Source of the DNA: a virus | Length of the DNA: 64,000 nucleotides | Reading direction: 5' to 3' (one strand) | Virus record (IMG/VR): IMGVR_UViG_3300045738_002140 | Span: 1-64,000 of that record | Shown here: positions 1,343 through 44,009 of the stretch, piece after piece | Position numbering within the stretch: the first letter of the stretch is position 1 | How the letters are laid out: each line of letters opens with the position of its first letter | The notes under the pieces: model-generated | Told to the model about the DNA's origin: nothing | The model's database searches: none | Seen by the model: the letters and a program-made list of their open reading frames with translations, nothing else | Made by a program: the position numbers and the translations under genes

Positions 1343-4300
1343 ATGGCTGAATTACCGACAACTTTAAGAGTAGGCGTAACAATAGACCGGGCATCGCTTT
1401 CTAGAGCAGAAAGAGATGTCCAAAGGTCTTTCAGGAATATTCAAAAATTAGCCAAGTCTGGCAAGCTCCTTGGATCGGCCTATACCGCACCGTTAGGTCG
1501 CATAACGCATTCCGCAGACGAATTTACCAAATCCCTAGAAGCCTCAAATGCTCGTGTCCTTGCGTTCGGAGCTTCCGCTGGCGCAATCTATGCTGTTGAA
1601 GCAGCTTTCTCCGCATTAGTTAGAAAAACAATAGAAGTTGAAAAATCACTTAAGGACATAAACGTAATCCTAGGACTAACAAGCTCAGACCTCAGGGGCT
1701 TTAGTCGAGACCTTTTTAAGATAGCTGGAGAAACGGGACAATCTTTCGCTGAGCTCGCTAAGTCTGCTACAGAATTTTCAAGACAGGGACTAGGCGCAGC
1801 AGAGACCCTGAGGAGAACTAGGGACGCAATGATTCTTGCTCGCTTAGCCGGTATGGACGTGATAGCTTCTACAGAGGCTCTAACTGCGGCCATGAACACC
1901 TTCAATGATACCGCGTTAACCTCGACTGTGATCGTCAACAAGCTCGCTAATGTTGATGCTAAGTTTGCTGTTAGCTCAGAAGATTTAGCCGAAGCCATAA
2001 AGCGCGTGGGTAGCTCTGCTATTGCTGCCGGGGTAAGCTTTGATTCCCTGTTGGCAACCATAACCGCAGCCCAACAAAAAACTGCTAGAGGCGGAAGAGT
2101 AATCGGTAATAGCTTTAAGACAATTTTTACTAGAATACAAAGGCCTAGGGTCATTAAGCAGCTTCAGGACATGGGCGTAGCCGTAAAAGACATGTCTGGC
2201 AACATGAAGCCCGCAATGGAGATTCTTCAGAACTTTGCTAGTACGTACGACAACCTAAGTGATTCCCAAAAAGCACTCACTGCAGAGATGCTCGGTGGCG
2301 TTTTCCAAGTAAACGTACTGAAGGCTACAATGTCTGATTTAAGTTCAGAATATTCTATATATAGCCAAGCCCTTAAGGTCGCAGCTAACACGACTAACGA
2401 GGCAGTAGACAGAAATGAAGAATTAAACAAAACCCTTGCTGCATTGCTCAATGAAACACTGAACAATGTAACTGCGTTCGCTGCGGCCATAGGAAAAACA
2501 TCGGTTGGTCCAGCGATAGAAAAAATCTTAGGTACAATTAATTCAATAATTGAAGCCTTTACCATCAAGGACCCAGAAAGCTGGGGGGCCAAACTTGGGG
2601 AAGGTTTGTTGTCTGGAATAGGGAAGGTCCTTTCTGGTCCGGGTCTTATTTTATTAGCTGCGCTTCTTGCTAAGATAGGTGCTAACTTTTTGAAATTTAC
2701 AATCAAGGCGGTCCAAACATTCACTGGATTAAATGCAGCTGCTCAGGAGCAAGCGAGCATACAGACGGTAATACAAAACATTTTAATAAAAAATCCAGAA
2801 ATTATTAACAAAGCCACAGCAAGTGCAGAAGGTCTTCTGGCTGTAGAAAACGCAATGCTTAAGGTGATGCAAAGCCAGAATACGGCCATGGCTAGTGCAG
2901 CCACGCTGAGCGCAAGTATGGCTGCGAACCTTACCGCCGCTACAAAATTGGGCGGTGGTCGAGTTGGAGGCAAGAAGGGGGCAAAGGCTTCTGGGGGGTT
3001 CATTCCTAACTTCGCAATGAAAACAGCCGACAGAACAGAAGCTATTGGAGCGATGGTTAACGGATACGAGGCCGGAGAAACCAAGAGGGCCCACATAAAG
3101 GGCATAGGTCAGATAATATACAACTCAAAAGAAACAAAAAAAGACGTAGGGCTTGGACAAGACGCCATACTTCCACCGAAGAACAGCTTGGGAGCAGATA
3201 GATATAAAAAAGCTTTCGAACAGATGCACGGGTATGACCCATATACAGCGTCTGGGGGCTTTGTGCCAAATTTCACCGCGCCAAAAACAAAACCAAAAAC
3301 TGCGGCGGGCAGCTTAACTGTCCCTTCTTCTCAGTTCGGTGGGGTTGCTCTTATTGTATCAAAAGATCTAGGTTTTGGAAAATTAGGGTTTACCAAGGAA
3401 GCTCTTGCTAAGGGCAAAATAACGGTTCCTGATAGCATGATGGGTATAAAAAGCAAACAAGGAAAAAGTGGGGACGTATTAAATGTTACAGGCATAAGAC
3501 AATACGTTCCACAGAGCCTTAGCCATGGGGATATTTCAGACAAATCGAAAAACAGCAGATTCGACGATATGATTAAGCAGCCCCTTGGGGGCGCAGTAAG
3601 GGCAATAGCTCAAAAATTATTAAAGCCTGCCACCAAGGAAAATTTTCCAAACATAAACAAAATAATGAAGCTTGTCAAAAAAGACAAGTCAGGATACCCT
3701 CAATTTGCTGGTAGAATTTTTGAAGCGGCAATCAATACTGCTATATGGTCAAAAGACATGGCTGGATCGAATACGTGGGATCATAATCCAAATCAATTTT
3801 CTGGGAATAACAAAGCCGTCACGGATGCTCTTATAGGAAATAAAGGCAAAGGTAGGGTGGGTGTTCATATCGCTTCCAATAAATACATTGATTCTAAGTT
3901 ATCTGGGCTGGGAAGTGACGCCGCCTTAAAGAGCATGAGGGGCAAACTTACCGGAACAGCCCAAATCAGAAACTCAATCCAGCAGAAACTTAATGCTGTT
4001 GCAAAGACCTCTGCAGTCGCACAGAAAAAGGGGTCATTGACGCCAAACGTAGCCATCACAAAGAAGGGCGTGGTTAAGTCCGGGAAATGGGCCTCTGCAG
4101 GATTTATTCCAAACTTCGCAGACGGATTGGCAGCGGCAGTACAAAGAGAAGCAGCTTCCCCGGGGATTGCGGAAGGGCAAGTGAAAGTCGGTCACGACAA
4201 AAGACTTTATGCTTCTGGTGGACTAGGTGTTTTCAATTCCACAGAAGGAAATCTTGGCAATGCAATAGACAGTCATATGTCTATGGGCAAAAATATAAAT

Positions 4301-7300
4301 GCAATTCAAAAAGCTGGCGCATCAGGCGGGTTTATTCCAAACTTCGCAGGGGAACATCCTCTAAATCAATGGTTAAGATCGTCTGCAGGAATACGTACAG
4401 AGAAAGACCCAACAGGAGCAAAGGGCCTTGGAAGAACCGATCTGGCAAAGATGCAAAAAGCCTTTGACAACCTCAACAAGGCAGTAGAGAAGGGCCCGGG
4501 AGCAATCGATAAGGCCTACAAAAACTTCAGAAAATTTGGATCAGCGGCAGGGCTAAGTAGGCATGAAATGAGCAGCTTCCACAAGAGCCTGAGGACAATG
4601 ACTTCACAGCTTACGGAACAAGCCAAGATAAGAAAAACCAATATAACCGCTGCCAAGTCAACAGGAAAAGCTCTCGAAAGACTAAAGGGAACAACTATTG
4701 CGACTTCGACTGCAACTGAGGGAACGGCAAGAAGGGCAGCCGCCACTAAAGCTGCCGTGTCCGGGAGAGGAGCAGCTGCTGCAGCCGGAGGGGGCGGAAT
4801 GGGCGGTATGGGAATGATGGCCGCTTTCATGTTGCCGTCTATGCTAACAGGAATGGTGGGCGGCGCAACGAGTACCGCAGTTCCGGGACAAGGAGCAGTG
4901 AACACAAACAGGATAATGGATGCAATCTCTGGAGGTGTTATGAAGGGCATGGTTAGTCACATGGTTGCTGGTGCATTGGGCGATGCCATGAAAAAGGGAT
5001 TTGAAGGACTAGGCAAAAAGGGAATGACAGCAGGTCAGGTTGGTTCCATGACTGGGTCAAGGGGCTTTTCTGGTTCGCGCTTGACTGCAGCCGCAAGAGC
5101 CAGACAAGCAGGCGGAGCGGCACAAGGCATGATGGGCCGAGCGGGCACGAGCATGTTGGCTACCAAGGTAGGGGGTAAGGTGGCTTCTCAGGCTTTTAAG
5201 GCCGTTCCCTACGTCGGTTGGGCCATTGCTGTAGCTGACATTACAAGCGAATTAGCTGATGTTTTTGACCAATGGAATGTCAATGTAAGGGCAGCGGAAG
5301 GGAATTTGGCTCAAGCTAATTTCGAACTTACAAAAACTTCAGAAACATTTAATGAATTTTTCAAGATATCCGCAGACCTAAACGAGATGACGCAAGGGTA
5401 CAAAAAACCTGATCCTTTCGTTATAGAAGAAATGAAGTCTAGGCAAATGGAAACATTAGACAGAATGGATCCAAAAAACAGACAAGCAATGATTGGCGCA
5501 ATGAAGAGGGGCGCAAGCACAAAAGAGCTAGAACACATTGCCAAACGGGCAACGGAAGACGCAAAAAGAGAAACTGACTACGGGAAAGTTAAGCTTTATG
5601 CTCATAGGATGCGGTCGGCGGAGAGCAAAAAAACCGGAGAGTTTTCGGTCGCTGCAGGCAATGATCTGTTGGGAAAGGTAACCAAGGCAGGTATAACAGG
5701 GACAGGTATTAACATAGCAAAAGACATGGCCAGAACTATATCAAGGATGCCTTTTGAGACCATCATGCCCAGTGGAGCTGTGGGACCTAACGTAGACCTA
5801 ATATCACGTCAGAATACAATTGGCGGAGAAAAAGTGACGCTCGGGAATGCGGTTACAACCTTCAACGCCGGCGATACAGATGACGAAATGGTTGACGCCG
5901 CTAAAGCGCTTTTCTCTAGCGGGTCGTGGACGGGGGGCTGGAAGGACAGCTTTAAGAAGCTTCAAGAAATAATGGACAAATCTGCCGATCTGGGTAACTG
6001 GGAAGATGAAGTGGGCGAGGTATCAACCCAATTCTATAAACAATTCGATCTAATTTTGGAAGCTATGGGCAAGGAAAACCCAGCAACTAAAGCCGCCGTG
6101 CTTAAAATAAGAGGGAACATGAAGCTTTTGAATACAGAAGACACGGAGGGGTCCGCAACGGTGTTGTACGAGATGCTTACAGAACTAAACAGATCATTTA
6201 ATAAGGGGGCAGGCGACCTCGCGGAATATCAAATAGCCCTTAAGCTTCACAACGAAAGACTAGCTCAAACTAGAAAGAATGTAGTAAATTTTTCAGACAG
6301 GATGTTTGCAATGTCAAAAGTTCTTCAGGACTTTACGAACCAAATGAGTTTTAATATAAACGTTACGAAAATGTCGACTAAGGCTGAAATGGATCGAGCG
6401 AACATGATGGAGAAGTTCGCAGGAAAGAAAGCGGGAATGTTTGGAAACGACTTGGCAATGACTCAATTTAACGCTGACGTTGCTTTTAGGCAGCTCGATA
6501 GGCAGGAGGTAGCCAATGAGCAGGGGGAAAGAATGAGCTCTACTGTCGGAGTAACAAAAGCAATGAGTGAGTTTGCTGGTAAGTTTGCGAAGGTCAGCGG
6601 CAGAATGGGTCAATTTGGTTTGTCTCCGTCCAAACTAACAGAAAAAGAAAGATTAGCTTGGGATGCCCTCGCAGACATGGAGGGTTTGACCGACAGCTTT
6701 TCAGGAGGTTTCGTAAAGGGGCAGGTCCATTTGAATGAGTTTATTACCGGGCTGGAAAATAGCAATAAAATGATGTCCGGAATCTATACTGGGGCTATCC
6801 ACCCGAGTGCGGCTGGGGTACCGGCCGAATTAAAGCAGTTTACCAAAGAAGACAAGGGACTAAAAGAGAGACTGAACGCCCAGCAACATCTGGTAAAAAG
6901 CCTCAAGCAAATTTCAGCAGACGGAAGGGCAAATCTAGAGCTCAACCAAAGAAGCACCAACATAGAAAGAAAAAATGTTTATGACCGAATGAAGGAAGGA
7001 ATGGAGGTTCAGAGAATCCAGAGGGAAGTTTCTTGGGGCGGAGGATTCCAAGCGAACCTGATGGCTACCAGCCTTGACCACGCCTTCAAGATTCAGGACA
7101 AGGCGAACCTTGTTAAGCACTTCGGCTCAGACTCCGCTGTCGGCAAACAATTACAAGCAGAAACAGATTTCGCCATGTCCAAGCAACTAAAAACCCTTGG
7201 TTATAGGGAAAGCGATATTGATCCAACCGCGAAGAAGAGAATGATACAAACAAGTGCGGAAAATATGATGCGACTTGGTAAAATGTATGGAATAAAAATG

Positions 7301-10300
7301 GATCCTGAGGTCGCAGCAAGAAGGGCGGCGATGCAGTTTCAGGCGACCTTCAAGGAGGAAAGCCCCGCAGAATTAATCAGAAGATACCTTCAAGACAATG
7401 TTGCCCCCATGGAGGCTATGAAGAAAATGGGAGATGCCGCTGTAGGTAGTGGAATTTTTGTTGTACCCGGAAAAGGCGCCATAATGCAATCGTATGGCCC
7501 ACAAGCTGGAGGAAAATCTTCGAGAACTAGCCCCGGTCCGGGATCGGGGGGTTCCGCACAGGGGACTAACGTAGCCGGTACCATCAGTGGAGCCGGTTCG
7601 AGCACTTCCACCTTTTTGTCATCCGTTTCCCAAGCGCTGGCGCGCGCCGCCAAGGTGTTTCAAGCCGGCGCCAGTGCGCAAAGCAGCCAAGGTATGAGCC
7701 AAGCATCCTCGCAACCCTCAGGACTAGCCACCGGTTCCGGGACGAGCCGCAGCAGACCACAAAGTCAGCGTGGGCAATCTGCAAACGCCAACCAAGCTGG
7801 TGCGGGAAATGCTCAATCTGCGGGAGGGTCAACACAACTTTCGCTAAGGCCTGACGGATCACCCAGACTAATGCCACCAATACCGAAGAAAAATAAATTC
7901 GATGTGGAATTGGTTGCTGCAGAACTATTTGAAGCTAGATTGTTGAAATTTGGATCAGTGGACTTTGATTCAAGTGCAAGGCCCTTTGATCCCGGCACTA
8001 GGGCGAGAAAAGACTTAGATTTTGAATTAAAAGAAGGGGATCAGGCTTTATTTCCGGAGAAAGCTATATCTCTAATTATGAGCCAACTAGAGCGGGGCGC
8101 TCCGGGACACTTCAAAGAAGGGATAACTGACTTTACCGAAGAGGTAAAGAAATGGCTTAGAGAGCAATATGACCTTGGCCCAGAACAGCCTACGGCGCCA
8201 ATGGTTGGTCCGATAAATAAACCCGGCTCACCTACTGGACCTAAAAAAGGTGGTGGTGGAACTGGCGCTGCCGGTGCCGTATTTGGAATGGCAATGGCAA
8301 TGCGAAACCTTCCAGAGTTCAAGGACCTAGACCCAATGGCTCAACTTAAGCTTGCAGATGAAGTATTTAAACAATATGGACCCGGCGGCATTTGGTTCTT
8401 TTCGGATCCGGCAGCAAGACAGCTTTTACCCCTTATGTTAAATAAGAGCGGGGTTAGTCTTCCCAGAGGCTTCAGCTCAACAGGGGGTGGCGGTGGTAAA
8501 AGCGGTGGAGGTAAATTAAGAGTCGTGCCCACCAGACCGAACAAAAGCCAGCTCCCCAGTGGGGGCGGAAACACTGCTGCCACGGGTGCCGCCAAAGGCA
8601 AAGGGAAACCAGCGCACGTACCGAATTGGGAATCAACGGGGGTGACGATCCTCACGGAGGAAATGCAGCGAGATCCGCATAACGAATGGTACGATCACGC
8701 TAAGTTCGGACCTCGACACCTTAATCCCGCATGGAAAGGTGGGCGTATCAAAGGCTCTGACGGGAAAATTAAAAATTATCCGAAGTATAAGAAGCCGACC
8801 AAGAAACAATCGAGTTTGGGTTCTTCGTCGACCACCATGACCACCTCAACCGGGGCTTCGTTGGGCATTCATTCACCAAGCCCGCAATCGTCTCTCGACA
8901 TTCCTAATTTGTTAAATCAAATAGCGGTTGCTACTGCGGCATCAGTAGAATTATTGAAAAAAATAGAACCCCATCTTCACGGAAGCCAAGGAATAGGGGC
9001 ATCTGGGGTCTCTATAAACAATGCCCTAAACACGGGTGGAGTTATTCCAAATGTACTCGGGCAGATGAAAAAGGACACCGCTATCTTTGCTCAAGTGACT
9101 CCAAATATAAAGAAAATAGGAGATATACAAAGAGCTACCCACCTCGGTAGACTTGGTGCGGCGGGCGCAACGGCCGCAAAAGAATATGGCATTACTCAGT
9201 TGCCGGGCAAATGGACAGATCCAAACAATGTCGCGGCTGGCCCCACGAAACACGATGATCTGCAAGCATGGTTCGACTTGATAAAAAAAGAAATGGGTGC
9301 GGAATTATTTGATTCGATTTTTGAGGGAATAGGCGCACACAGAGGCCCGGCAGGGGCCGTAATCAAGCCCGGCACCCCGGGTCTCTCCAGTATACCAACA
9401 ATGCAGAATGCCGCGGGCGACAAGTTGGTAGATTGGAAAGAGTTAGACAAGATTCTGGTATCTCATTCAACGCGTATAAGAAAGGAAGTAGAAGCCGCAC
9501 ACAAACACGCGATTATGGCTGCCCCATTCCCGGACACTACGGGGCCATACGGACGCCCGGTTGGGGCAACGCAGGCTGGTAGCTTAAAGACTGGTATAGA
9601 CGATACAGTAGATGGCAAAGTTGTCGGTCCGGCGGCCGACACCACCGGCCTTGGCGGCGCGTTGGGTAGATTCTTCAGGTTGATGTTTGGAAAAAACAAA
9701 GGGCCCCTGACGCCAAAGCAGGGTTTCGTAACCCCGGGTGGAAAACCTGCTGTAGGGGAATACGAGGATACTCCCTTGTCCTACTCATCAGGCACTAAAG
9801 GGTTGTTGGAATTTTTCAGGAAAAATAGTTCCAAGTTTGACGCGGATGTAATTGCAGATGTCGTAAAAGCTATTGAAGCAAGAATGCCCGCAAACCAAGA
9901 AAAAATCAAACTCCAAACAACGTTAGACAAAATTCTAGACGAAGGATTCCGAGGGAAGGGGCGCTCCGGAGGTTATGGTTCACCCGAAATGAGATTCGAT
10001 TCCTCTGGCCGTGACGATCCCGAATCGTTCAAGGATTTTGAAAAAGCTAGAGATCTTTGGATAAAGACAATTGAAGAACTAAAGAAAAAAATTAAAGACC
10101 TTCCCGACACAAAGCAGCCCGAAGAAGTGAGGGTGGATACCAGCACAAGAAGTATGTTGATTGGAAGTATGCAAAAGCAGCACGGCATCGGCGGCTCAAG
10201 CCAACTTACAGACGCTAGTGCTATAGCCGACAAATTCAAAAGCCTTACCACAGAGGACAAAAGCCGAGACCTCATGGCGGGTGGAGGATTCACTGCGCAG

Positions 10301-12178
10301 AGTCGACTAATAGATATGCAGTGGAAAGCAAGCTCGGCGATCGCTTCATCTAACATATCAGTAGAAGAACAGATAAAACTATACGAAAAGCTCGCCAAGT
10401 CCTCCACGGATCTTACCAATTCTAAATTGACAGAGACACAACAGATAACTGAATTTGGTCACGTAGTCGCAACGGCGATGAGAGAAATCGCAGCAGAGCA
10501 ACTAAGAAGAGGAGAAATAAGCACTGGCGAATATAGACAGCAAATAGGTGCAGAAAACGAAGCGGCCATACGAAACAGTCAATATGGTGGAAAGAATATG
10601 GGAAGATCTTTCGGCGGAGCATTACTCTATGACAATAAGGATATGCTAAGGGACTTCGACATGTTGATCGGGTCTTTGGCCGTTAACCTCAGGGATGGAG
10701 TAACAAACGCCTTCGAGGAGGCCATATATGGATCCAAAAAACTCAAGGAGGCATTTGCCGATATGTTTAAGGATCTTGCTAAGTCAATCCTTAGCGGTAT
10801 GATGAAGATGGCTTTCCAGAGATTGTTCGGGGCAATGGCTGGCGCAGCCATGGGAACTGGATCGGGTTGGGCACGAGGAGGACTCGTAGAAGGAGGATCA
10901 GGGGTTAGGGATGACGTACCGGCCAGATTAATGGGCGGAGAATTCGTTGTAAAAAAATCCATGGTAGACAAATATGGATCAGGATTTCTTGCCGCGCTTA
11001 ACTCAGGGTCCATACGAACAGCAGCGGGAGGGGGATCTTCCGAAGGCGCGGGATATAACGACTCAAAAACAGGAAAAGTTAAATACGAAGATGGCGAACA
11101 ACACCCGATGGCGAATAGGTATGTGTATAATAATCCAACAAAGCCCACAGAGGGACACTTTGAAGTTGACCCAAGAATGTCAGCCTATGCTTTGACTGAC
11201 CCAGATAATCCGCAAAACGATCTCAAGTTTGAGAGATATGAAAATCTGACTAATTACATAGAAGAAAAAGAAGAGTACGAAAAGATGAAGGCCGAAGCGC
11301 TGCAGCAATTTGAAGACAACAAGAGAAGACAAGCAAGAGGAGCATTGATACAAACAGCTATGACTTTTGCCATCATGGGCCTAGCTAATAAAATTACGAG
11401 TTGGCAGGCAGGAAAAAATAATGACGTCGTAGCAAAATATAACCGAGGAGAAACACTAACCCCCAAGGAAATGAAGAGGCTAGAGGGTGCGGTCAATGGA
11501 CCATTAGGGCGACATATGGATCCAACGGTAAGAGCAAATCTTCGAGAGGATTTTTCTGTCCACGGCGGTAGCGAAGGGAACATGGGGGGCTTTAATAGGA
11601 ATTTCAGAGCTAACAATGATCTGATGCCCGGAGGAGGCAAGATAAACGCTAGGTACGTACCCGGCTCATGGGGCGGTGGAACAGGGGCCACAGGTCCAAG
11701 AGGGGATACGGTTGGGGACTTTTTCGGTGGGAAAGATTGGACGCAAAAAAGTTATTTTCATAATCCAACAGGGGCTAAGGCGTTTAAACCGCAGGCCCAT
11801 GGAGGAATACACCCGTCCGACAATATTCCCGCAATGTTAACTGGTGGGGAGTTTGTGATGAACAAGGGCGTTGTCGACAAATACGGCATAGACTTCTTCA
11901 ATAGGCTAAATCAAGGAAACGTTTCAGCCTTCCAATCCGGAGGCCTAGTGGGCGGAAGTGATGCCTCTCCTGTCGCCGGCGGAGGCGCAGGGGAAATGAC
12001 CAACAACATCACTATCACGGTGAATATTGACAAGGACGGAAATACGAACTCAAATACAGAGGGCGGAACAGATGAGAGCAGCGGAAAACAACTCGCAAAG
12101 AGGGTTCACCAAGTTGTTATCGGAACCCTCATTGAAGAGAAGCGTCCCGGCGGTCTTCTGTATGGTGCGGGGGTCTAG
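1343..12178 (+). CDS. Phage tail tape measure protein (TP901-type N-terminal core), 3611 aa
   Basis: N-terminal TMP core (ATEFSRQGLG...LANVDAKFAVSSEDLAEAIKRVGS...GNSFKTIFTRI), long Ala/Gly-rich helical body, C-terminal GG...D.(V/I)PA.L.GGEFV repeats and a ...EEKRPGGLLY ending. Confidence 0.93.
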   Translation: MAELPTTLRVGVTIDRASLSRAERDVQRSFRNIQKLAKSGKLLGSAYTAPLGRITHSADEFTKSLEASNARVLAFGASAGAIYAVEAAFSALVRKTIEVEKSLKDINVILGLTSSDLRGFSRDLFKIAGETGQSFAELAKSATEFSRQGLGAAETLRRTRDAMILARLAGMDVIASTEALTAAMNTFNDTALTSTVIVNKLANVDAKFAVSSEDLAEAIKRVGSSAIAAGVSFDSLLATITAAQQKTARGGRVIGNSFKTIFTRIQRPRVIKQLQDMGVAVKDMSGNMKPAMEILQNFASTYDNLSDSQKALTAEMLGGVFQVNVLKATMSDLSSEYSIYSQALKVAANTTNEAVDRNEELNKTLAALLNETLNNVTAFAAAIGKTSVGPAIEKILGTINSIIEAFTIKDPESWGAKLGEGLLSGIGKVLSGPGLILLAALLAKIGANFLKFTIKAVQTFTGLNAAAQEQASIQTVIQNILIKNPEIINKATASAEGLLAVENAMLKVMQSQNTAMASAATLSASMAANLTAATKLGGGRVGGKKGAKASGGFIPNFAMKTADRTEAIGAMVNGYEAGETKRAHIKGIGQIIYNSKETKKDVGLGQDAILPPKNSLGADRYKKAFEQMHGYDPYTASGGFVPNFTAPKTKPKTAAGSLTVPSSQFGGVALIVSKDLGFGKLGFTKEALAKGKITVPDSMMGIKSKQGKSGDVLNVTGIRQYVPQSLSHGDISDKSKNSRFDDMIKQPLGGAVRAIAQKLLKPATKENFPNINKIMKLVKKDKSGYPQFAGRIFEAAINTAIWSKDMAGSNTWDHNPNQFSGNNKAVTDALIGNKGKGRVGVHIASNKYIDSKLSGLGSDAALKSMRGKLTGTAQIRNSIQQKLNAVAKTSAVAQKKGSLTPNVAITKKGVVKSGKWASAGFIPNFADGLAAAVQREAASPGIAEGQVKVGHDKRLYASGGLGVFNSTEGNLGNAIDSHMSMGKNINAIQKAGASGGFIPNFAGEHPLNQWLRSSAGIRTEKDPTGAKGLGRTDLAKMQKAFDNLNKAVEKGPGAIDKAYKNFRKFGSAAGLSRHEMSSFHKSLRTMTSQLTEQAKIRKTNITAAKSTGKALERLKGTTIATSTATEGTARRAAATKAAVSGRGAAAAAGGGGMGGMGMMAAFMLPSMLTGMVGGATSTAVPGQGAVNTNRIMDAISGGVMKGMVSHMVAGALGDAMKKGFEGLGKKGMTAGQVGSMTGSRGFSGSRLTAAARARQAGGAAQGMMGRAGTSMLATKVGGKVASQAFKAVPYVGWAIAVADITSELADVFDQWNVNVRAAEGNLAQANFELTKTSETFNEFFKISADLNEMTQGYKKPDPFVIEEMKSRQMETLDRMDPKNRQAMIGAMKRGASTKELEHIAKRATEDAKRETDYGKVKLYAHRMRSAESKKTGEFSVAAGNDLLGKVTKAGITGTGINIAKDMARTISRMPFETIMPSGAVGPNVDLISRQNTIGGEKVTLGNAVTTFNAGDTDDEMVDAAKALFSSGSWTGGWKDSFKKLQEIMDKSADLGNWEDEVGEVSTQFYKQFDLILEAMGKENPATKAAVLKIRGNMKLLNTEDTEGSATVLYEMLTELNRSFNKGAGDLAEYQIALKLHNERLAQTRKNVVNFSDRMFAMSKVLQDFTNQMSFNINVTKMSTKAEMDRANMMEKFAGKKAGMFGNDLAMTQFNADVAFRQLDRQEVANEQGERMSSTVGVTKAMSEFAGKFAKVSGRMGQFGLSPSKLTEKERLAWDALADMEGLTDSFSGGFVKGQVHLNEFITGLENSNKMMSGIYTGAIHPSAAGVPAELKQFTKEDKGLKERLNAQQHLVKSLKQISADGRANLELNQRSTNIERKNVYDRMKEGMEVQRIQREVSWGGGFQANLMATSLDHAFKIQDKANLVKHFGSDSAVGKQLQAETDFAMSKQLKTLGYRESDIDPTAKKRMIQTSAENMMRLGKMYGIKMDPEVAARRAAMQFQATFKEESPAELIRRYLQDNVAPMEAMKKMGDAAVGSGIFVVPGKGAIMQSYGPQAGGKSSRTSPGPGSGGSAQGTNVAGTISGAGSSTSTFLSSVSQALARAAKVFQAGASAQSSQGMSQASSQPSGLATGSGTSRSRPQSQRGQSANANQAGAGNAQSAGGSTQLSLRPDGSPRLMPPIPKKNKFDVELVAAELFEARLLKFGSVDFDSSARPFDPGTRARKDLDFELKEGDQALFPEKAISLIMSQLERGAPGHFKEGITDFTEEVKKWLREQYDLGPEQPTAPMVGPINKPGSPTGPKKGGGGTGAAGAVFGMAMAMRNLPEFKDLDPMAQLKLADEVFKQYGPGGIWFFSDPAARQLLPLMLNKSGVSLPRGFSSTGGGGGKSGGGKLRVVPTRPNKSQLPSGGGNTAATGAAKGKGKPAHVPNWESTGVTILTEEMQRDPHNEWYDHAKFGPRHLNPAWKGGRIKGSDGKIKNYPKYKKPTKKQSSLGSSSTTMTTSTGASLGIHSPSPQSSLDIPNLLNQIAVATAASVELLKKIEPHLHGSQGIGASGVSINNALNTGGVIPNVLGQMKKDTAIFAQVTPNIKKIGDIQRATHLGRLGAAGATAAKEYGITQLPGKWTDPNNVAAGPTKHDDLQAWFDLIKKEMGAELFDSIFEGIGAHRGPAGAVIKPGTPGLSSIPTMQNAAGDKLVDWKELDKILVSHSTRIRKEVEAAHKHAIMAAPFPDTTGPYGRPVGATQAGSLKTGIDDTVDGKVVGPAADTTGLGGALGRFFRLMFGKNKGPLTPKQGFVTPGGKPAVGEYEDTPLSYSSGTKGLLEFFRKNSSKFDADVIADVVKAIEARMPANQEKIKLQTTLDKILDEGFRGKGRSGGYGSPEMRFDSSGRDDPESFKDFEKARDLWIKTIEELKKKIKDLPDTKQPEEVRVDTSTRSMLIGSMQKQHGIGGSSQLTDASAIADKFKSLTTEDKSRDLMAGGGFTAQSRLIDMQWKASSAIASSNISVEEQIKLYEKLAKSSTDLTNSKLTETQQITEFGHVVATAMREIAAEQLRRGEISTGEYRQQIGAENEAAIRNSQYGGKNMGRSFGGALLYDNKDMLRDFDMLIGSLAVNLRDGVTNAFEEAIYGSKKLKEAFADMFKDLAKSILSGMMKMAFQRLFGAMAGAAMGTGSGWARGGLVEGGSGVRDDVPARLMGGEFVVKKSMVDKYGSGFLAALNSGSIRTAAGGGSSEGAGYNDSKTGKVKYEDGEQHPMANRYVYNNPTKPTEGHFEVDPRMSAYALTDPDNPQNDLKFERYENLTNYIEEKEEYEKMKAEALQQFEDNKRRQARGALIQTAMTFAIMGLANKITSWQAGKNNDVVAKYNRGETLTPKEMKRLEGAVNGPLGRHMDPTVRANLREDFSVHGGSEGNMGGFNRNFRANNDLMPGGGKINARYVPGSWGGGTGATGPRGDTVGDFFGGKDWTQKSYFHNPTGAKAFKPQAHGGIHPSDNIPAMLTGGEFVMNKGVVDKYGIDFFNRLNQGNVSAFQSGGLVGGSDASPVAGGGAGEMTNNITITVNIDKDGNTNSNTEGGTDESSGKQLAKRVHQVVIGTLIEEKRPGGLLYGAGV
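2987..4348 (+). repeat. Four dispersed AS(G/A)GF(I/V)PNF(A/T) peptide repeats inside the TMP
   Basis: Copies at 2987-3016, 3248-3277, 4091-4120 and 4319-4348. Confidence 0.9.
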
Positions 12179-43545: not shown

Positions 43546-43974
43546 TGGTGGAAGCGGCGGGAGTCGAACCCGCGTCTTTAAAGCCATCGGCTCAAATGTA
43601 CTACAAGCTTAGTCGGTGTTAATGCTCGCTTGGCGTGTCACCGACAAACGGCCTACGCGAGGTTGTAAGGGATGTATAAATTTTATACTGGGCTCCCTTA
43701 CGTGCTCCAGTTTTTTGCTCGCTATCGACGCCCTAGCTCCTTAACGAGCATCCAGAGTAGGACGGGGTAGGTTATTCTACCAGCAAGAGGGCTTCATCCT
43801 CTACAAAACCGAACTTGGCGAGAATCTCGTCAGCTTCGGCTAGTGAAGGGGCCATCTCCATGTCAACATTAGTGTTGGCATTTATGTTTTTTTGATAGAT
43901 GTTTTTAAGAGGCCAACCATCATCCTCTGCTTGCAATTTGGCGTAAGGTTCTAAATCGAATCCAGTACGCTCCC
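43546..43974 (-). ncRNA. ssrA: tmRNA (429 nt)
   Basis: 5' GGGAGCGUACUGGAUUCGA; 3' GACGCGGGUUCGACUCCCGCCGCUUCCACCA; acceptor stem GGGAGCG/CGCUUCC with G3-U70 and discriminator A; pk1-like AGAGG/CCUCU; AUAAAU-GCC resume context. Confidence 0.95.
43772..43879 (-). other. tmRNA tag reading frame ANTNVDMEMAPSLAEADEILAKFGFVEDEALLLVE*
   Basis: Resume codon GCC follows pk1 and the A-rich AAAAAACAUAAAU; 35 sense codons to UAA. Confidence 0.8.
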
Positions 43975-43981
43975 GTATATT

Positions 43982-44009
43982 ATTATACACAATTATTTAT
44001 TTTCGTCAA
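43982..44009 (-). promoter_or_regulatory. Strong sigma70-like promoter of the tmRNA
   Basis: TTGACG-16-TATAAT, 7 nt before the mature 5' G. Confidence 0.75.

Follow-up and report, generated by a model that had tools for sequence, protein, structure and literature searches.

Introduction

The peptide tags encoded by bacterial tmRNAs are mostly about 10-15 amino acids long, vary in their middle and keep an ALAA end. Departures from this plan exist both in nature and in the laboratory. The Mycoplasma ssrA tag has about 27 amino acids, is recognised by Lon through determinants placed along the tag and ends in -FA, and in the engineered ssrA-DD variant an acidic ending blocks degradation. Phages carry tmRNAs as well: about 2.3% of phage genomes encode one (PMC9004378), and those of mycobacteriophages and of phage G have been described (PMC4131195). 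When read by ARAGORN, the tags of Bxz1 (ATDTDATVTDAEIEAFFAEEAAALV, 25 aa) and Wildcat (AVDTDVDFAMWEAELASDLVAA, 22 aa) are strongly acidic. The same program gives short, ordinary tags for the Streptomyces phage Jay2Jay (ANSNVAFALAA) and for Bacillus phage G (AKLNITNNELQVA), and returns GNNAEMRMAA for LR756500 and ANDNDVVTAEVRLAA for Lacusarx.

Phage tmRNAs are usually viewed as extra rescue capacity copied from the host. Here we describe a family of viral tmRNAs that does not fit this view, since its long tags share a core that is nearly unchanged in hundreds of viral contigs with differing replication and tail modules, while the degron end is the variable part.

Results

A complete tmRNA gene in an uncultured marine phage

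The window, by which we mean the whole stretch of 64,000 nucleotides analysed here, makes up the first 64 kb of a virus record from IMG/VR that totals 114 kb and has a CheckV completeness of 66%. A one-piece tmRNA (ssrA) gene of 429 nt lies on the minus strand at 43546..43974. Rfam model RF00023 matches this interval from 43974 to 43546 with a score of 134.3 bits (gathering score 47; E = 2.4e-52) and is covered in full (model positions 1-374); 33 and then 80 homologous viral loci add to the evidence for the gene. A preliminary description of this DNA had proposed a complete and alanylatable tmRNA, and the tRNA-like domain indeed has all of the expected parts, namely a 7-bp acceptor stem, the G3-U70 pair, a T arm with GGUUCGA and a 3′ ACCA. 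The 5′ strand of the acceptor stem, GGGAGCG (43968..43974, minus strand), supplies G3 of the alanine identity pair G3-U70, as judged from the sequence and an alignment of 22 sequences, all 22 of which have G-U here. The T arm GCGGG-UUCGACU-CCCGC, the 3′ acceptor strand CGCUUCC, the discriminator A and the encoded CCA follow at 43546..43573 (minus strand), as placed by RF00023 and the sequence.

Covariation in the 22-sequence alignment is seen in the acceptor stem, the T arm and helix 2. Acceptor pair 4 changes from A-U to G-C in six sequences and pair 6 from C-G to U-A in one, and the T stem covaries at both of its outer pairs. Of the pseudoknots, PK1 together with helix 5 aligns to RF00023 with high posterior probability and PK2-PK4 align poorly; RNAalifold cannot draw pseudoknots. 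The feature at 43546-43974 is a real tmRNA gene, carried by an uncultured marine phage, and from its sequence we infer that the RNA is charged with alanine and takes part in SmpB-dependent trans-translation.

A predicted sigma-70-type promoter (43982..44009, minus strand) precedes the gene, with TTGACG at 44009-44004, a 16-nt spacer and TATAAT at 43987-43982. It agrees with the consensus at 11 of 12 positions, as the near-consensus promoter of the preliminary description had implied, and 7 nt separate its end from the mature G1. A -10-like GTGTAA(A/T)NAAT is retained at the equivalent site in relatives, several of which have TTGAC or TTGAT at -35. With this promoter of its own, the tmRNA stands at the head of a helicase-primase-polymerase block. 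A basic ORF of 139 aa (P0002; 43121..43540, minus strand) starts 6 nt past the tmRNA CCA and has weak PHROG matches to HNH and homing endonuclease families (2e-6 and 3e-5). P0002 belongs to the conserved helicase-primase block and is probably co-transcribed with the tmRNA. Because no terminator is found between the two, the tmRNA probably arises by cleavage at the 5′ end of a helicase-primase operon transcript. P0002 lies downstream of the tmRNA in 46 of 109 loci, all of them in the window's phage lineage, and is absent from divergent lineages; the idea that it is a mobile cassette that moves the tmRNA between phages was rejected on this ground.

The record further encodes a DnaE-type polymerase, a DnaB helicase, a primase, a RecA/UvsX-like protein and an RNR, and the closest polymerase from an isolated phage is no more than about 31% identical to that of the window. 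A single ORF of 3611 aa occupies 1343-12178 on the plus strand. As had been noted for the window, there is no smpB, and searches of the entire 114-kb record and of five large relatives (86-100% complete, four of them at least 93%) found none either. Genes for Lon and Clp ATPases were likewise not found in the phage record and the large relatives examined, and a ClpP-like gene occurs in one relative only. Since the record has no smpB, the phage presumably uses the SmpB, AlaRS and EF-Tu of its host, which the sigma-70-type promoter and the ANDN-type tag start suggest to be proteobacterium-like.

The tag frame is under selection as a peptide

The tag reading frame comprises 35 codons (43775..43879, minus strand), from the resume codon GCC at 43879-43877 to GAA at 43777-43775, and is closed by the stop codon TAA at 43772..43774 (minus strand). 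Translation from GCC gives ANTNVDMEMAPSLAEADEILAKFGFVEDEALLLVE, exactly the 35-aa tag that had been read earlier. GCC 43879 aligns with the resume codon of RF00023 and is preceded by an A-rich stretch. The frame of the window tag is settled by homology, because ARAGORN calls the equivalent resume codon and the same frame in homologues with tags of 30-31 aa. A check of the resume codon with ARAGORN and Infernal, as proposed in the preliminary description, therefore gave a divided result: RF00023 and the ARAGORN calls in homologues agree, but ARAGORN misses the gene in the window itself.

Within the close family, entropy at the three codon positions is 0.33/0.37/0.80 and pN/pS is 0.32, and indels in the tag are whole codons without exception. 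Upstream of GCC the frame is unconserved, and many homologues are frame-shifted there or have stops 3-8 codons upstream. As the frame is conserved only from GCC onwards, coding constraint begins exactly at the resume codon, and a 72-aa ORF in the same frame (43990..43772) is for the same reason not a gene. In a set of 53 distinct core sequences, all six Ser codons (TCG, TCA, TCT, TCC, AGC, AGT) are used for the invariant Ser and all four Gly codons for the invariant Gly, and three or four codons serve for the invariant Ala residues. Many members have F, L, V, K or T in place of the internal Met of the tag, and an internal start is accordingly unconserved. These patterns of codon usage and substitution indicate that the tag is translated and under selection at the level of the peptide. 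The alignment of tags from related phages that had been suggested earlier thus upheld coding conservation, but acidic ends turned out to be confined to one subgroup.

A near-invariant helical core

Family alignments and the predicted helix delimit a conserved core, APSLAEADEILAKFGF, at codons 10-25 (43805..43852, minus strand). Pooling of 179 distinct core-to-end strings gives the family motif A-[PML]-S-[VL]-x-E-A-D-[AE]-[IV]-L-A-x-[FYH]-G-[YFW], or, in narrower form, A-P-S-[VL]-x-E-A-D-[AE]-I-L-A-x-F-G-[YFW]. Ala7 of the core is invariant in these strings, Asp8 and Leu11 are kept in 99%, Gly15 in 98%, and Ser3 and Ala12 in 97%. Column entropy is 0-0.3 bits in the core versus 1.8-2.5 bits at positions 2-4 from the C-terminus. 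By this measure the strongest selection on the tag acts on the core and not on the C-terminus, the main point that the preliminary description missed.

Given the family alignment, AlphaFold models residues 13-22 and 28-34 as helices and places a turn at FGF; the mean pLDDT is 76 for the tag and 88 for residues 11-20. An amphipathic helix in the middle of the tag, as proposed before, is in keeping with this model, in which Ser-x-x-Glu would form an N-capping box and Phe-Gly a C-cap. Tags of the family are built on a plan of three parts: an AN(D/N)N-type start, resembling that of ordinary proteobacterial tags; a near-invariant acidic amphipathic helix; and a variable acidic linker with a non-polar end.

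Mimicry of a known protein was considered as a source of the core and rejected. A profile search of the PDB with the tag family gave no match, and among 1.84 billion protein representatives no real protein family carries the core; there were only mis-called tag ORFs and two repeat proteins whose resemblance is at chance level. The core motif is also absent from the literature searched.

Predicted RNA structure overlapping the tag

Part of the tag sequence may also pair as RNA. A small 5-bp hairpin, CAACA-CUAA-UGUUG, lies within codons 1-6 just after the resume codon (43864..43877, minus strand); in the 22-sequence alignment its pairs 104:111 and 105:110 survive two-sided changes in 6 and 7 sequences, respectively. 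In the subgroup with ADNIV/ANNIV tags, GUUGA seems to pair instead with UCAAC upstream of the resume codon. RNAalifold further draws a hairpin through codons 10-28 (alignment columns 127-183, about 43792-43846 in the window) with some covariation. At its pair 135:173, a switch between G-C and C-G tracks the Val13/Tyr25 and Leu13/Trp25 types of tag, and the Ile-Leu codons ATT and CTC are invariant in the close family. Because this hairpin shows covariation, constraint on the RNA may account for some of the nucleotide conservation seen in the close family, and over codons 10-28 it may add to the constraint on the peptide.

The glutamate end

The last two codons of the window tag are GTA GAA (Val-Glu; 43775..43780, minus strand), where relatives mostly have GCA GCA or GCG GCA (Ala-Ala). 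The tag therefore ends in -LVE, as had been read earlier, and the usual non-polar degron end, typically -LAA, is not present. The last residue among the 179 distinct variants is Ala in 144 (80%), Val in 25 (14%), Glu in 6, Ser in 3 and Asn in 1. All six Glu variants fall in the "...(E/K)ALLLVE" subgroup to which the window belongs, and their nearest relatives end in -LLLVA, -LLLVV or -LLLAA. Ends vary among AA, VA, VV and VE within the "VEDEALLL" subgroup, VE being the commonest, and the last tag codon alternates among GCA, GTA and GAA. The Glu end is derived, since its six variants sit in one subgroup and the others mostly end in Ala or Val.

It had been allowed that homologues ending in -AA would make VE a private mutation or a sequencing error. 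Most homologues do end in -AA, -VA or -AV; VE nevertheless recurs in 10 protein clusters and in 5 other viral contigs. In one of the homologous loci (L020) the tmRNA is only 90% identical to that of the window, and the tags differ by four changes, all of them synonymous. By these comparisons the end is a derived and rare trait that is maintained, and sequencing error does not explain it. The further proposal of the preliminary description, that the tag is no degron and spares its product, finds no support at the level of the family given these counts of Ala, Val and Glu ends. That a C-terminal Glu blocks ClpX is a claim based on work in E. coli.

Four tmRNAs of the family (L002, L004, L006, L021) are 471-472 nt long owing to an insertion of ~45 nt. 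In the tmRNA tree, L002, with an -LLLVE tag, clusters with L006 and L021, which have -LQLTA tags; this grouping hints at recombination within the gene between tag types.

Spread of the family and its detection

A 35-aa tag is too short as a query, and the 72-aa same-frame ORF was used as bait for the search of viral contigs. This returned 33 viral contigs with full-length homologous tmRNAs (72-99% identity), the tags of which have 30-35 aa and a common core. In a protein database, 72 clusters of mis-called ORFs were found to overlie such tmRNAs, and the profile search of 1.84 billion representatives added 105 more, nearly all of them short "proteins" with the tag at their end. A second viral scan with divergent members as queries gave 80 loci, and the divergent members were verified as tmRNAs by ARAGORN and Rfam (73-137 bits). 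In total, the family comprises about 110 viral loci and about 175 clusters of mis-called short ORFs, with tags of 29-35 aa; nearly all contigs on which it was seen are viral.

The DnaE polymerase of the window has a counterpart in one of eight large related records, namely the closest complete relative (G001, 178 kb, 100% complete), at 60% identity; the other seven gave no match at E <= 1e-5. One divergent member of the family adjoins a tail-sheath gene, and no conserved neighbour gene common to all lineages was found. With DnaE shared by one of eight records and P0002 limited to one lineage, the tag family crosses phage lineages without a co-travelling neighbour. No family member was found among isolated phages, for which 50,697 phage records were searched by blastn with the tmRNA and by tblastn with two tags. 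For prokaryotes, represented by one genome for each of 185,579 species, the matches listed include two MAG contigs, NYZO01000117.1 (20 kb, from an "archaeon" bin) and JAAZYK010000267.1 (793 nt, from a Dehalococcoidia bin). Both are probably phage DNA put in the wrong bin, and the tag family is likely absent from bacterial chromosomes.

Variation on the family theme was also observed. Four separate ORF clusters (P0037, P0051, P0067, P0081) have a 52-aa version of the tag that exits the usual frame after FGYVE and continues as ...TQESI(S/P)AKWDSCRV(T/A)EKVPV(H/L)(A/V)(A/G)A, mostly ending in -AAA; this could be a recurrent frameshifted or extended allele of the tag and not a sequencing error. 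On two divergent phage contigs, Pistol ribozymes (RF02679, about 60 bits) occur at 5457-5524 (L114) and 4688-4756 (L120), 0.4-1.3 kb upstream of the tmRNA or of the tag-motif position.

Automated annotation deals unevenly with such tags. ARAGORN finds family members with tags of 29-33 aa, misses those with tags of 34-35 aa, the window gene included, and shortens some tags of 31-35 aa by starting at an internal GAA or GCT, as in EADEILAQFGYVEEEALLLAA; this behaviour was seen on the window and on the loci L010, L012, L018, L025, L068, L077, L085, L099 and L102. ARAGORN is the tool of the published phage tmRNA surveys (PMC9004378, PMC7162821). As long tags are missed or shortened by it, the family is probably under-counted or mis-read in surveys based on it.

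Discussion

There are several possible explanations for a phage tmRNA tag of this kind. A conserved middle combined with a variable degron end points to a specific partner of the tag, and our best reading, to which we assign a probability of about 0.5, is ribosome rescue together with a helical docking module that fixes the fate of the tagged proteins. Cleavage of mRNA by phage nucleases or by host defences should leave many ribosomes stalled. The phage tmRNA would be loaded onto these ribosomes by SmpB, AlaRS and EF-Tu of the host, and the nascent chain would gain a 35-residue tail during infection. The helical core may dock to a conserved factor of the host, be it a protease domain or an adaptor, and this factor would decide how the tagged proteins are routed. 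The non-polar C-terminus may in turn represent an ancestral second determinant of the ClpX type. Two point substitutions in the subgroup of the window (GCA GCA to GTA GAA) would have given -VE, which probably weakens recognition of the C-terminus; if so, the fate of tagged proteins in this subgroup would depend on the core alone. A reader encoded by the host is favored because the phages examined have no smpB, Lon or Clp ATPase gene and no shared neighbour across lineages, and a conserved host protein is favored because the core is alike in phages from marine and other samples. A more daring version of the docking reading, which we regard as quite unlikely, holds that the core is a module that phages add by trans-translation to every protein freed from a stalled ribosome, and that it binds one universally conserved host protein. 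The phage would in this way choose the fate of tagged chains, which might be destroyed faster by a different protease or be used as decoys that occupy host quality control, with -VE as a natural version that is bound and not degraded. If this were true, the tmRNA would be a viral tool for post-translational re-addressing, beyond spare rescue capacity.

The end of the window tag invites another explanation, that -VE makes a natural non-degradable tag like ssrA-DD, and that rescue spares the product or adds a functional peptide, directed against RNA-cleaving defences or against the host tmRNA in competition for SmpB. The terminal Glu is real and is under purifying selection in its subgroup, in view of its recurrence in 10 clusters and the synonymous-only differences from a 90%-identical tmRNA; VE is the commonest end within the "VEDEALLL" subgroup; and the family conserves the core rather than the terminus. 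Glu ends, however, account for 6 of 179 variants only, and because family members normally end in non-polar Ala or Val, as classical degrons do, sparing cannot be the function of the family. Products that end in -VE could still be degraded by Lon, FtsH or ClpAP, or through the core itself, and a link between this tag and defence systems is not evident, all of which makes the explanation unlikely. We are similarly doubtful of a role of the core that is independent of proteolysis, in which an acidic helical tail (net charge about -8) stops truncated structural proteins from interfering with the assembly of capsids or tails, or serves as a decoy for a host protease or adaptor. A tag that is very acidic and 3-4 times the usual length would suit such a role, as would the retention of the core across phages with differing modules and tail types and the recurrence of long acidic tags in unrelated phage tmRNAs (Bxz1, 25 aa; Wildcat, 22 aa; Cellulophaga phi14:2, 38 aa). 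A steric or charge effect alone would nonetheless not require near-invariant Ser, Ala, Asp, Leu, Ala and Gly, and most members retain a degron-like end.

The conserved stretch might, finally, not be a tag at all, and instead be a structural element of the tmRNA or a small gene, be it the 72-aa ORF or a peptide from the internal ATG. Such an ORF does exist and has been annotated by gene callers in many metagenomes, and the RNAalifold hairpin runs through codons 10-28. Loss of the frame upstream of GCC and replacement of the internal Met in many homologues argue against a gene, the many synonymous codons used for invariant residues, both Ser codon families included, argue for selection on the peptide, and Rfam and ARAGORN place the tag frame exactly at the one opened by GCC. 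We consider this reading very improbable. The main interest of the locus is accordingly the core conserved throughout the family, more than the glutamate end. For the docking reading, the core provides a ready peptide bait for its partner, and the series of AA, VA, VV and VE ends is a natural test of how important the C-terminus is.

Comparison with known tags

Long tags are borne by other phages as well, although they share no sequence motif with that of the window. In the Cellulophaga phage phi14:2 (NC_021806.1, 4031-4502) we find an unannotated tmRNA that scores 46 bits with RF00023, one bit below the gathering score. Read from the Rfam-aligned resume codon, its tag has 38 aa (GNDTDNTQLKANMTVVHNILNGSDALIGSSVQKLAMVA), ends in -MVA and is of another sequence type; the ARAGORN output contains only the last 11 residues. 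Homology to the tags of Bxz1 and Wildcat was also considered and rejected, as 567 and 250 of 3000 composition-matched shuffles, respectively, reach the observed profile score.

The Mycoplasma tag, which is directed to Lon in a way comparable to the docking proposed here, is a precedent for a long tag that accompanies a change of protease, but it is cellular and has no sequence similarity to the phage tag. The engineered ssrA-DD resembles the window tag in having an acidic C-terminal residue where ClpX reads the tag; the window tag differs in being a natural variant and in being acidic at its last residue only (-VE, not -DD). E. coli SsrA, with the tag ANDENYALAA, is like the window tmRNA in its full match to RF00023, its G3-U70 pair, T arm and CCA, and the A-rich stretch before GCN. 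The likeness extends to the AN(D)N start of the tag, and most relatives of the window tmRNA have a comparable (L/M/V)A(A/V) end. In contrast to the E. coli system, the phage tmRNA comes without smpB, its tags have 29-35 aa as against about 10, a helical core is inserted, and the window tag ends in -VE. The family as a whole shows the opposite pattern to ordinary bacterial tags, in that the middle is kept and the end is variable. By analogy, the part of the E. coli tag that binds SspB may be the counterpart of the docking core proposed here.
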